A stretch of 61,935 nt of DNA, taken from contig JAKAVR010000004.1 in NCBI GenBank assembly GCA_021817225.1, forward strand, positions 1 through 61,935, written 5' to 3'. A program made the translations under genes and the position numbers. The DNA comes from Thermoplasmata archaeon. GTDB lineage: Archaea > Thermoplasmatota > Thermoplasmata > Sysuiplasmatales > Sysuiplasmataceae. The notes under the pieces are model-generated. The model was not told the DNA's origin, made no database searches, and saw only the letters and a program-made list of their open reading frames with translations. How positions within the stretch are numbered: position 1 is the stretch's first letter; every line of letters starts with the position of its first letter. Below, piece by piece: positions 43,822-56,261 of this stretch.

Positions 43822-44574
43822 TTGGGATTGTTCCTGATGCTTGCTTCATTGCCTGAAGGGATAATATCCATCATACTCAGCCTGCTGCTCAGTTACGCAG
43901 CCTACAGGCAGAAGATGCTCACTCTGGCGGGATCGGTCGCCGCATTCACAGTCAGCGCCCTCATCGGGCTGCTGGGCAACCTTTCTTGGCTCCTGCTCAT
44001 TCTCACATTTGTTGCTGCGGCATTCGTCACAACCAGGTTCCGTATACTGGAGAAGGCCAGAATGGGGCTCCAGGAGGGAAGGAAAGGAGAAAGGGGCAGC
44101 CTCAACGTGGTGGGAAACAGTCTTCCCGCTGTCTTTATTGCCCTGCTCAGCACGGTTCTTGGAGTGCAGGGCTCCCAGACGAGCTACGCAATAATATATA
44201 CGGTGGCGATTGGCGCGGCGACTGCCGACACGCTTGCAAGCGAGATCGGTGTGATTGACAGGCACCCGCGGCTAATCACGACGATGAGGCCCGTCCCGCC
44301 TGGAACCGACGGCGGCATCTCAGTGCTCGGGACCGCTGCCTCCTTTGGCGGCGCCCTGTTCATATCGGTGGCTGGATACGTCCTTATGATGCTCCTCGGC
44401 CAGCCCCTTCCTGCATACTTCATTCCACTTACGGCGGTGCTTGGCCTTCTTGGCTCGTTGATTGACAGCCTGCTCGGGGCAACGCTTGAGAGAAACGGAC
44501 TGATTGGCAAGCAAACGAACAATCTTGCCTCAATTGTTGTCGCCTGCCTCATCGCCGGGGCCCTTGTGATTTGA
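43822..44574 (+). CDS. DUF92 (TMEM19-like) membrane protein
   Basis: RGSLNVVGN, ATADTLASEIG, PPGTDGGIS..G, DSLLGATLE. Confidence 0.88.
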   Translation: MGLFLMLASLPEGIISIILSLLLSYAAYRQKMLTLAGSVAAFTVSALIGLLGNLSWLLLILTFVAAAFVTTRFRILEKARMGLQEGRKGERGSLNVVGNSLPAVFIALLSTVLGVQGSQTSYAIIYTVAIGAATADTLASEIGVIDRHPRLITTMRPVPPGTDGGISVLGTAASFGGALFISVAGYVLMMLLGQPLPAYFIPLTAVLGLLGSLIDSLLGATLERNGLIGKQTNNLASIVVACLIAGALVI

Positions 44575-44603: not shown

Positions 44604-44618
44604 CAAAAGGCATAAATA
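44604..44618 (+). promoter_or_regulatory. Putative BRE/TATA promoter of 5S rRNA
   Basis: CAAAAGGCATAAATA about 25-30 nt upstream of the 5S start. Confidence 0.5.
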
Positions 44619-44645
44619 GGAAATAGGATTGTTGATTTTCAGGAA

Positions 44646-44868
44646 TGGTACGACGGCCAAAGTGGTGGTGTCACACCTGGTCTCGTCCGATCCCAGAAGT
44701 TAAGACCACCTACGTTCCCTGTGGTACTGTTGTGCGCGAGCCAACGGGAAGCTTGGCCCCGCAAGGGGTTTTGCCTTTAGTGCCCAGGCAAATTAATCGA
44801 TATCCTTCGGGATAACGATGAAGTTTGCCGTTATAAAGGTGCTAAAGCGCTTAGAGCGCTGTCGGCCA
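44646..44868 (+). rRNA. rrf: 5S rRNA with ~98-nt internal expansion
   Basis: Helix I (TGGTACGACGGC / GCTGTCGGCCA), helix II GTGGT/ACCAC, ACACC..CCGATCCCAGAAGTTAAG loop B/C, GTAC..GCGAG..GGGAAGC loop E/helix IV; 3' strand resumes at about 44853. Confidence 0.9.
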
Positions 44869-44946
44869 TTCCCCGCTGCTTTTCTGTGAGAACGACTCAG
44901 TAAGCTTTATTTGCGCATCTGCAGACTATCGCAGAGGGTAAATGAC

Positions 44947-45831
44947 TTGGACCTGACCATTCAGACCGCATTCATCCTAGCCGCGCTGATAGCGGCCCTC
45001 ATCCTGGCAGGCTACCTGGAATGGAGTTACGCCAGAGGCAGGCTGATGAGGAAGAGGAGCGCAAGACTCGCGGCCGGCGTTGCAAGGGAGGAGGCATTCA
45101 ACGCCTCTGTAACAACAAAGGCAATCATGAGAAACCTCAGGGCTCAGGGTTACGACGTTGCCAGGGCAGAACCTCTTGTGAGGCAGACGGATGCTGAGCT
45201 CGAAATGGGCAATTTCACCAGCGCCAAGCTTCTCGCCGAAGATGCAAAGAACACACTGTTCGAAATCAAATCGGCCAGCGTGAGGCAGACAGGCGGGCTG
45301 ACGAAGGAGCCTGCAGGCGAAACAGCAGGTGCGCAGAAAGGGCAGGGAATCAGGCAGGCGCCGCCCCCCGCCGAGGCGCGGCAGCCAGTCGCACAGAAGA
45401 AGCTGCCAAGGAACTATGCCGAAGCAAGCTTCACAATCAAGTCCGTTGAAACAGAAGTTGAGAATGCGGCCGGTGAAGGGAAGAACACCGAGATACCGGC
45501 TAAGTTCCTGGCGGAGGCAAAAGAGAATTTTGAAGATGAAAGGTACGATGATGCACTTCGGCTTGCCGTGAGGGCAAGCAGGTCACTGGCAGGAGAGGGA
45601 GGCGGCGAAACAAACATACAGGCTATCCCGCCGCAGACACCTGCGAAGAGCGGTGAAACTCCGAAAACAGCAAACCAGGTATGTGAAGAGTGCGGTGCAC
45701 CGTTGAAGACAGGCGACAGTTTCTGCAGGAAGTGCGGCGGGAAGATCAGACTTCAGTGCCCTGCTTGCGGAGAGCAGCTCTCGAAGGGTGATACCTTCTG
45801 CGGCAAGTGCGGCGGCAGGATAGAAAGCTGA
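44947..45831 (+). CDS. Membrane-anchored helical protein with C-terminal double zinc ribbons
   Basis: N-terminal TM; CEECG..FCRKCG and CPACG..FCGKCG. Confidence 0.78.
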   Translation: MDLTIQTAFILAALIAALILAGYLEWSYARGRLMRKRSARLAAGVAREEAFNASVTTKAIMRNLRAQGYDVARAEPLVRQTDAELEMGNFTSAKLLAEDAKNTLFEIKSASVRQTGGLTKEPAGETAGAQKGQGIRQAPPPAEARQPVAQKKLPRNYAEASFTIKSVETEVENAAGEGKNTEIPAKFLAEAKENFEDERYDDALRLAVRASRSLAGEGGGETNIQAIPPQTPAKSGETPKTANQVCEECGAPLKTGDSFCRKCGGKIRLQCPACGEQLSKGDTFCGKCGGRIES

Positions 45832-56152: not shown

Positions 56153-56261
56153 TCCCGACTCCCGGATTTGAACCGGGGACCTGCTGATCTCAGCGGCAAC
56201 AATCGGATTAGCCGATAACACAACTACAGTCAGCCGCTCTACCAGTCTGAGCTAAGTCGGG
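56153..56261 (-). tRNA. tRNA-Tyr(GTA) with 35-nt intron at 37/38 (intron 56189-56223)
   Basis: Minus strand CCCGACT TAGCTCAGACTGGTAGAGC G GCTGA CTGTAG[intron]A TCAGC AGGTC CCCGG TTCAAAT CCGGG AGTCGGG A; C1:G72 and A73 fit archaeal Tyr identity; CCA not encoded. Confidence 0.95.

Follow-up and report, generated by a model that had tools for sequence, protein, structure and literature searches.

A 98-nucleotide expansion segment very probably retained in the 5S ribosomal RNA of a Sysuiplasmatales archaeon

The DNA analysed here (the window) is a stretch of 61,935 nucleotides (nt), positions 1 to 61,935 of contig JAKAVR010000004.1 in the metagenome-assembled genome GCA_021817225.1 of a Thermoplasmata archaeon of the order Sysuiplasmatales, and at 44640-44872 (+) it carries the one 5S ribosomal RNA (rRNA) gene that turned up in the ~95%-complete genome. 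Within the gene lies a 98-nt insert, and we consider it very probable that this acid-mine archaeon uses the locus as its working 5S rRNA gene, with the 98-nt segment retained in the RNA, a promoter of its own and a four-way junction at helix V. An original prediction, made from the letters alone, had described a 5S nearly doubled by a structured insertion under selection; folding and covariation uphold that description, and the helices it had proposed (P1 to P4 below) are all present. The features of the locus are as follows, R1 denoting a covariance model of the insert with short 5S flanks (123 positions, 34 pairs) and percentages of pairing referring to aligned relatives.

44640-44872 (+): 5S rRNA gene, or abundant RNA species, of 233 nt, with helix I extension and insert; RF00001 (Rfam) match, the sole 5S match in the genome, and an RNA-library contig of a relative covering exactly 44640-44872.
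44606-44618 (+): archaeal promoter, AAAGG resembling a transcription factor B recognition element (BRE), then a TATA box CATAAATA; ~22-25 nt 5' of the RNA 5' end, conserved in the order.
44642-44648 (+): helix I extension, 5' strand GGAATGG; pairs with CCATTCC at 44866-44872, invariant in 9/9 sequences of the order.
44651-44657 (+): helix I, 5' strand, opposite 44858-44864; every cell paired (100%) across 98 sequences, one covarying pair.
44662-44713 (+): helices II-III with loops B and C (beta arm), from the Rfam alignment; helix II 95.8% and helix III 100% paired, both covarying.
44714-44722 (+): helix V, 5' strand; 44714-44717 with 44854-44857 (proximal), C44718 with G44755, 44721-44722 with 44751-44752 (distal).
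44723-44750 (+): loop E, helix IV and loop D (GCGA), ending in GGGAA; helix IV 100% paired, three covarying pairs.
44756-44853 (+): the 98-nt expansion segment, absent from 19 normal 5S genes of the class; R1 scores 88.1 bits.
44756-44769 (+): P1, a 5-base-pair (bp) hairpin GCCCC/GGGGT with a GCAA tetraloop at 44761-44764; 98.5% paired, 5/5 pairs covarying with 4-5 pair types each (96 distinct sequences).
44773-44784 (+): P2, 5' strand, the base of the long arm, GCCTTTAGTGCC/GGTGCTAAAG(C)GC; pairs with 44838-44850, C44848 bulged, all 12 pairs covarying class-wide.
44785-44786 (+): internal loop, short side CA; consensus C-Y-A-G-G in Thermoplasmatota.
44787-44794 (+): P3, 5' strand, GGCAAATT/AGTTTGCC; pairs with 44822-44829, 89.7% paired, 6/7 pairs covarying.
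44796-44819 (+): P4, the distal hairpin, ATCG/CGAT and TATCC-TTCG-GGATA with one A-A mismatch and a UUCG tetraloop at 44806-44809; from the minimum-free-energy fold, 78-83% paired, 9/10 pairs covarying.
44830-44837 (+): internal loop, long side GTTATAAA, 8 nt; consensus G-Y-T-N-K-A-A-M in Thermoplasmatota.
44854-44872 (+): 3' strands, belonging to proximal helix V at 44854-44857, to helix I at 44858-44864 and to the helix I extension at 44866-44872, from pairing and covariation.

The canonical 5S core is left intact by the insert. RF00001 matches at 44649-44767 (+) with 59.2 bits, past its gathering score of 38, and the search for further 5S copies that had been proposed for this genome returns it as the only RF00001 match in the assembly at E up to 1 (1.97 Mb, 99 contigs, 95% complete). 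Local alignment to the 5S model, another proposed check, thus finds the gene but misplaces its 3' end: the 3' strand of helix I is threaded into the insert with eight non-pairs, and the real one is GCTGTCG at 44858-44864, partner of CGACGGC at 44651-44657. The expectation that standard annotation would truncate the gene is borne out, the 3' end given by RF00001 falling inside the insert. Across 98 distinct expanded sequences, aligned as full genes with plain MAFFT, the 41 pairs of core, junction and P1 are 97.2% paired, and 18 of them change on both sides; their covariation score is 0.317 vs 0.132 in shuffles, a value that none of 500 shuffles reaches. This collection was drawn from 103 candidates, with four normal 5S genes bearing a chance downstream match dropped (L105, L126, L159, L167) and one haloarchaeal sequence (L093) put aside.

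The gene also extends beyond the canonical ends, and here the original prediction, under which removal of the insert would leave a normal 5S of ~124 nt, fell short: a further, perfect 7-bp helix, GGAATGG/CCATTCC, closes the molecule and lies inside the ends of the RNA contig (44640-44872). With it, helix I amounts to 14 bp and holds both RNA ends side by side. Complementarity of the flanks averages -10.0 kcal/mol in 97 expanded genes vs -5.9 kcal/mol in shuffles, and -4.5 vs -3.9 kcal/mol in the 19 normal 5S genes of the class. Among loci L001-L190, an extension of helix I by 5-8 bp tends to go with an expanded 5S and is mostly absent from the normal 5S genes of the class.

The site of the insert can be fixed by comparison with normal genes and by covariation. 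From GGGAA to GCTGTC the gap measures 9 nt in the 19 normal 5S genes vs 104-122 nt in expanded ones. The insert lies in the 3' strand of helix V, five bases past the loop-E GGGAA, between loop E and the three-helix junction. More exactly, it lies between the pairs C44718-G44755 and C44717-G44854. Position pair 44718-44755 is U-A in 64 and C-G in 34 of the 98 sequences and unpaired in none, and because 44718 pairs with 44755 and C44717 with G44854, the limits of the insert are 44756-44853. The earlier proposal of ~44755-44852 had the size of 98 nt right and the position one base off. An insert between these two pairs makes helix V a four-way junction, whose branches are proximal helix V, the distal part of helix V that continues into loop E and helix IV, P1 and the P2-P3-P4 arm; there are no linker bases on the 5' strand or between distal helix V and P1, and three on each side of P2. 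In the RNA, the insert would sit in the 3' strand of helix V, would remain in the abundant molecule and would give helix V this four-way form.

Folded in isolation, the insert reaches -43.6 kcal/mol vs -26.8 +/- 3.2 in shuffles (z-score -5.28), and none of 200 shuffles is as stable; the whole stretch of the gene folds at -89.9 kcal/mol with a z-score of -4.05. The P2-P3-P4 arm is long and unbranched, with an asymmetric 2/8-nt internal loop and a UUCG cap; among families P4 differs in length, the arm being usually capped by a stable tetraloop, and the hairpin-plus-arm shape is obtained by folding for 85 of 98 isolated inserts. Searched alone against Rfam at a permissive E-value, the insert finds no known family, the best match having E = 1.5. 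The tetranucleotide GCTT stands at both ends here (44751-44754 and 44849-44852), and the original prediction had taken it as a meaningful direct repeat; because it is lost in genera g2 and g3 of the order and in other families, the repeat is, on this comparison, due to chance, with no target-site duplication involved.

Covariation among relatives, which had been named as a check, proved strong over the 98 distinct sequences. In a model-guided alignment (A4; 96 distinct rows), 84.7% of cells are paired vs 61.4% in shuffles; two-sided change is seen at 32 of 34 pairs, and 745 cells show it vs 264 in shuffles. The covariation score is 0.645 vs 0.241, with 0/500 shuffles reaching it and slid partners scoring 0.08-0.14. 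The order alone, under plain MAFFT, provides nine pairs with two-sided change (0/500 shuffles reach this number), six of which fall among the 12 pairs of P2. Judged by these patterns of substitution, the structure of the insert is under selection. Two other routes were abandoned: a complementary-diagonal search on alignment A1 was dropped for too many chance matches in G/C-rich conserved columns, and an insert-only MAFFT alignment of Thermoplasmatota sequences (A5) had P1 and P2 out of register, with no model built from it, a haloarchaeal insert-only model (R2, below) being used instead.

The insert reaches far beyond this genome. Nine of the ten species genomes of the order carry it, at 85-100% identity, and the tenth, 78% complete, has no 5S assembled. 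In other families of the class, some lower-scoring 5S matches ended in a hairpin and not in helix I, revealing inserts of 95-113 nt at the same site. A pattern scan using one genome per species returned at least 119 stretches, nearly all of them, among the matches listed, from uncultured Thermoplasmata metagenome-assembled genomes. R1 recovers 98/98 expanded sequences at 58-117 bits, and in an evenly drawn sample of the class it matches 60 of 151 genomes, with exactly one match each. Presence is all-or-none in 26 of the 29 class families: 12 have the insert (f1 8/9, f4 16/16, f7 1/1, f14 3/4, f15 15/17, f16 1/1, f20 4/4, f22 3/3, f24 2/2, f25 4/4, f27 1/1 and f29 1/1) and 17 have it in 0 of n. 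Eighteen genomes of other classes also match in a phylum sample of 151 genomes (e.g. f41, 9/9), and the two such matches inspected lie within 5S genes downstream of 23S and show the same layout. By these sequence comparisons, the insert is a conserved module of the phylum at large.

Several observations were made alongside this survey. Genome G264 has two expanded 5S copies 2.5 kb apart on one contig. In the Sysuiplasma genome G008 (6% contamination), two non-identical expanded copies lie each at the end of a contig (C7:78-308 and C19:9-141), and these may reflect two strains or a true second copy. In family f6, two 5S matches of G038 (C1:81505-81592 and C9:8713-8800) span model positions 1-120 in 88 bases at 59.7 bits; the 5S may be shortened there, or the alignment may contain a large deletion. 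In another class, a Thermoplasmatota genome with an expanded 5S also carries a group I intron in its 23S gene (RF00028, 89.2 bits; L194, 2784-3022, minus strand).

Public sequencing runs bear on whether the insert is real and whether it persists in the RNA. Twenty runs from ten studies contain the stretch or part of it, with labels that include mine drainage, soil, sediment and wastewater, and DNA contigs with the insert and its flanks occur in three DNA runs from three studies. A sceptic could see in the locus a misassembly, a pseudogene or a 5S gene recently hit by a mobile element, and could point to the state of the genome, a metagenome assembly in 99 contigs. This reading is hardly credible in view of these three independent DNA runs, of the same structure in 98 distinct sequences from independent assemblies, of the gene's standing as the only 5S in its genome with core and promoter conserved, and of a module that is found once per insert-bearing genome and nowhere else in it.

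The sole RNA library among the runs, metatranscriptome X20, yields one contig of 264 nt at a depth of 540.6, which covers 44640-44872 and nothing outside, so that its ends are the predicted gene ends, and which contains the whole insert. It differs from the window at ~20 positions in the pattern of genus g3 (Sysuiplasma) and comes from a relative, not from this species. Since its ends coincide with the predicted gene ends, the contig argues for an RNA molecule over contaminating DNA. No joint skipping the insert is reported for this contig, and because the contig carries the insert without such a joint, a retained segment is favoured over an excised element; on the contig of this one relative, the insert is most likely retained in the mature RNA. 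The original prediction had left the choice between an independent expansion segment and an excised one; of this, retention finds support in the RNA contig, and independence of origin is a matter to which we return below.

Excision would make the insert an archaeal intron or intervening sequence, removed after transcription, leaving a 5S of normal size or in fragments. Introns do occur in archaeal rRNA and tRNA genes, a tRNA gene in this very window has one of 38 nt, the insert here is bordered by a 4-nt repeat, and a minor spliced form could exist beside the assembled contigs. The X20 contig, single and from a relative, is nonetheless continuous across both junctions of 44756-44853 at its depth of 540.6, with no skipping joint. 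Throughout the phylum the inserts keep a size of 95-113 nt, and their distal helices and loops are preserved with covariation, which endonuclease splicing would not need; the element is single-copy and all-or-none in 26/29 families, not patchy; it holds no notable open reading frame; and P1 begins directly at the 5' junction. A geometric scan for bulge-helix-bulge motifs found no perfect (10/10) fit at the junctions, the best being 9/10 and away from them, with a scanner that did not discriminate, a tRNA-intron control scoring no better. Known bulge-helix-bulge introns of archaeal rRNA and tRNA genes resemble the insert as an extra structured segment in a stable RNA gene; they differ in that here the segment is retained in an RNA contig and its inner structure is conserved phylum-wide. 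We regard an intron as very unlikely.

Upstream of the gene, AAAGGCATAAATA stands at a fixed distance in 10/10 Sysuiplasmatales 5S loci (with one-base variants in two sequences, and AAAAATTGATATA in G005), and the spacer between the AAAGG-CATAAATA block and the gene is variable. From general knowledge of archaeal promoters, we take this block to be a BRE and TATA box, with transcription presumably starting near 44640-44642, and the 5S gene would then be transcribed from its own promoter. Its neighbours, both on the + strand, are a DUF92 membrane protein gene upstream (43822-44574) and a zinc-ribbon protein gene downstream (44911-45831), and no linkage to 16S or 23S occurs within the window. 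About 25-50 nt past the 5S 3' end, the order shares a conserved block, TGAGAAYGG followed by GTAAG-YTTTATTT (window 44873-44930; L033-L040), which may serve as promoter for the following gene or act in processing or termination. A 56-codon open frame at 44645-44815 (+) falls entirely within the 5S gene and is a likely source of a spurious automatic protein call. Elsewhere in the window, the intron-bearing tRNA gene lies at 56153-56261 on the minus strand, its 38-nt intron following the anticodon loop (Rfam, 56.7 bits); ARAGORN, run over the whole window, reports no tRNA or tmRNA, although Rfam sees this one.

The X20 contig has a further property, in that it is circularly permuted: its positions 1-132 correspond to 44741-44872, one A follows, and 134-264 correspond to 44640-44770, with a terminal overlap of 30 nt. 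The extra A between 44872 and 44640 is the base that follows CCATTCC in L038 and L039, the best-matching loci of genus g3. Because the contig is permuted in this way, reads across a 3'-end-to-5'-end junction must exist. We take the 30-nt overlap to be that of an isolated cycle in an assembly graph with k=31, the value of k being our assumption.

Such head-to-tail reads raise the question of whether the abundant 5S RNA is a covalent circle, or at some stage becomes one like the archaeal 16S and 23S intermediates, its extended helix I joining the ends. The permuted contig, the overlap expected from an isolated graph cycle and a 14-bp helix I that keeps the ends adjacent all speak for this. The evidence is, however, a single contig from a single run, and the same junction arises when reverse transcriptase switches templates on a very abundant small RNA or when ends are ligated in library preparation. 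The 5' end also falls at the expected transcription start, ~22-25 nt past a conserved TATA box, where the RNA would carry a triphosphate, a poor ligase substrate, and no convincing bulge-helix-bulge was seen at the gene ends with the scanner that failed to discriminate the tRNA-intron control. In the part of PMC12918454 available to us, circularisation is said to apply to 16S and 23S 'but not 5S rRNAs', which counts directly against a circular 5S. Circular pre-16S and pre-23S intermediates, and circular 23S in archaeal ribosomes, as described in the accessible portions of PMC12918454 and PMC7758197, share with the present case a head-to-tail junction and ends joined by a terminal helix; here the 5' end resembles a primary start, no bulge-helix-bulge is seen and there is one contig only. 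A circular 5S is thus unlikely in our estimation.

The kind of insertion described here is itself known from haloarchaea. According to the available text of the survey by Stepanov and Fox 2021 (PMC7812874), expanded archaeal 5S occurs only in Halobacteriales (Halococcus, Halalkalicoccus, Halomarina, Halodesulfurarchaeum), with 15 archaeal genomes listed, all of that order. The same text places a 108-nt insertion between core positions 104.1 and 105 (citing Luehrsen et al. 1981), describes the insert as an asymmetric V, one arm a short hairpin and the other long, unbranched and interrupted by internal loops, and names positions 104.1-105 as the sole archaeal site identified at which unhindered expansion is possible. 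The Halococcus insert is flexible by cryo-electron microscopy, as given in the accessible part of Tirumalai et al. 2020 (PMC7530397). Neither Thermoplasma nor metagenomes occurs in the text of PMC7812874 (0 occurrences each), and papers citing the survey include none on a Thermoplasmatota 5S insertion, as judged by their titles. The original prediction knew of no such report for Thermoplasmatota, and full-text literature searches outside subscription journals and supplementary tables, judged mainly by title and opening of the abstract, found no published one. What is new is a Halococcus-type 5S insertion in a new phylum and with a far wider distribution. In our own sampling, 27 of 401 Halobacteria species genomes carry a Halococcus-type insert, vs 15 genomes in the abstract of the 2021 survey (PMC7812874), and haloarchaeal inserts come in two loop variants, GTTACAAC and GTC-GAC (loci L195-L222).

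The two groups agree closely in their layout. The site is the same, with five bases from GGGAA to the first hairpin in both; lengths are 103-107 nt in our haloarchaeal extracts and 108 nt in print, against 98 nt here and 95-113 nt in the clade; the Halococcus-type 5S measures ~231 nt vs the 233-nt RNA species of this locus; both inserts form an asymmetric V of short hairpin and long arm; and in both no other 5S type accompanies the expanded form in the genome. Shared motifs are a GCAA-capped P1, CAGG opposite GTTAYAAM and AATCG after P3, and among 11 distinct haloarchaeal inserts CCCAGG is found in seven and an 8-nt loop GTTACAAC or GTTATAAC likewise in seven. The differences lie in the hosts, Halobacteriales as opposed to 12 of the 29 sampled families of one Thermoplasmatota class plus other classes; in the distal part, a conserved element in haloarchaea and a simple UUCG or similar hairpin here; and in helix I, which in the expanded genes of the present group also tends to be longer by 5-8 bp.

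This likeness may stem from common ancestry or from convergence, and the models bear on both. Under default filters R1 gave no match to the haloarchaeal insert, yet it aligns full-length to 13/13 haloarchaeal expanded genes at 18.9-34.3 bits (E 3e-5 to 0.04 in 68 kb) and scores at most 12.0 bits on five normal haloarchaeal loci. The reciprocal search used R2, a covariance model of the haloarchaeal insert alone with no 5S flank, run over 84 kb containing 18 expanded and 10 normal Thermoplasmatota loci. Its six best matches coincide exactly with Sysuiplasmatales inserts (14.3-22.2 bits, E 0.008-0.6), and normal loci have none. In a FastTree phylogeny of 98 Thermoplasmatota and 13 haloarchaeal inserts over 123 columns, the haloarchaeal sequences form a clade of their own on a long branch; the smallest clade uniting them with Sysuiplasmatales has 52 tips and a support of 0.39, and no donor can be named.

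Independent origin would hold that a single unobstructed site and the four-way junction formed there favour a hairpin and a long arm, and that the likeness follows from that. The survey's description, in its available text, of 104.1-105 as the sole archaeal site allowing unhindered expansion (PMC7812874) fits this view, as do the failure of R1 under default filters, the lack of affinity between the groups in the tree and the differing distal arms. It accounts less well for the shared 8-nt loop GTTAYAAM opposite CAGG between P2 and P3, the GCAA-capped P1 and the AATCG after P3, for detection in both directions, with R1 above its normal-5S controls in all 13 haloarchaeal expanded genes, and for the top six matches of the flank-free R2 all lying on Sysuiplasmatales inserts. 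We give independence real weight but hold it to be the less probable account; on sequence and model evidence, the Thermoplasmatota and haloarchaeal inserts probably share ancestry. The independence proposed in the original prediction consequently sits poorly with the common site, the V layout and the reciprocal detection.

Some points weigh against the interpretation as a whole. The RNA evidence is one assembled contig, of a related species, from one run; rare variants are lost in contigs, which also give no measure of a minor spliced form; and DNA can occur in an RNA library. Because alignment A4 was fitted to the structure of the model, it is biased towards pairs. As to ancestry, R1 contains the 5S flanks that both groups share, the R2 E-values of 0.008-0.6 are marginal under a rough calibration, with part of the score coming from a common GNRA hairpin, and in the tree, built on ~123 columns, the haloarchaeal inserts join no Thermoplasmatota group. 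With these points taken into account, an old module, inherited vertically across many uncultured Thermoplasmatota lineages, is the best explanation of the data, and one that we hold with high confidence as a whole.

Bacteria also have expanded 5S genes (Thermoanaerobacterales, Clostridiales and others), which, as the available text of PMC7812874 describes them, resemble the archaeal ones in being helical insertions that leave the core fold intact, and differ in lying elsewhere in the 5S (loop C, the helix III bulge, helix IV), in being mostly shorter and in often standing beside normal copies.

The position of the segment on the ribosome would follow from the solved Halococcus ribosome, which has an insert at the same site. 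Our best guess is that the segment would act as a solvent-exposed platform whose conserved asymmetric loop binds a partner; this loop (CA opposite GUUAUAAA) would be the best candidate docking site for a protein or RNA, and that it binds a ligand is something we infer. At the bold end stands a scenario in which the module is an ancient mobile piece of the ribosome that arose deep within Thermoplasmatota and was passed across phyla to haloarchaea together with its docking loop (CAGG opposite GUUAYAAM), the doubled 5S being a covalently closed circle and the first circular 5S rRNA; we think this quite improbable.

Large archaeal 5S expansions were formerly seen, as the accessible text of PMC7812874 conveys, as a curiosity of a few haloarchaeal genera. 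Expanded 5S genes are probably mis-annotated in many metagenome-assembled genomes, because standard 5S models give a truncated gene with a false 3' end, and completeness checks based on 5S may be affected. Here the module proves to be a stable and selected trait of a large share of the uncultured Thermoplasmatota, present in 60/151 sampled genomes of the class and in other classes. By record titles, insert-bearing lineages include those of acid mine drainage, soils, sediments and soda lakes, and because they come from such habitats too, high salt cannot be the reason for the module. The conserved internal loop offers itself for binding tests, function can be compared between the two phyla, and whether an rRNA expansion segment can be transferred laterally is now amenable to study.

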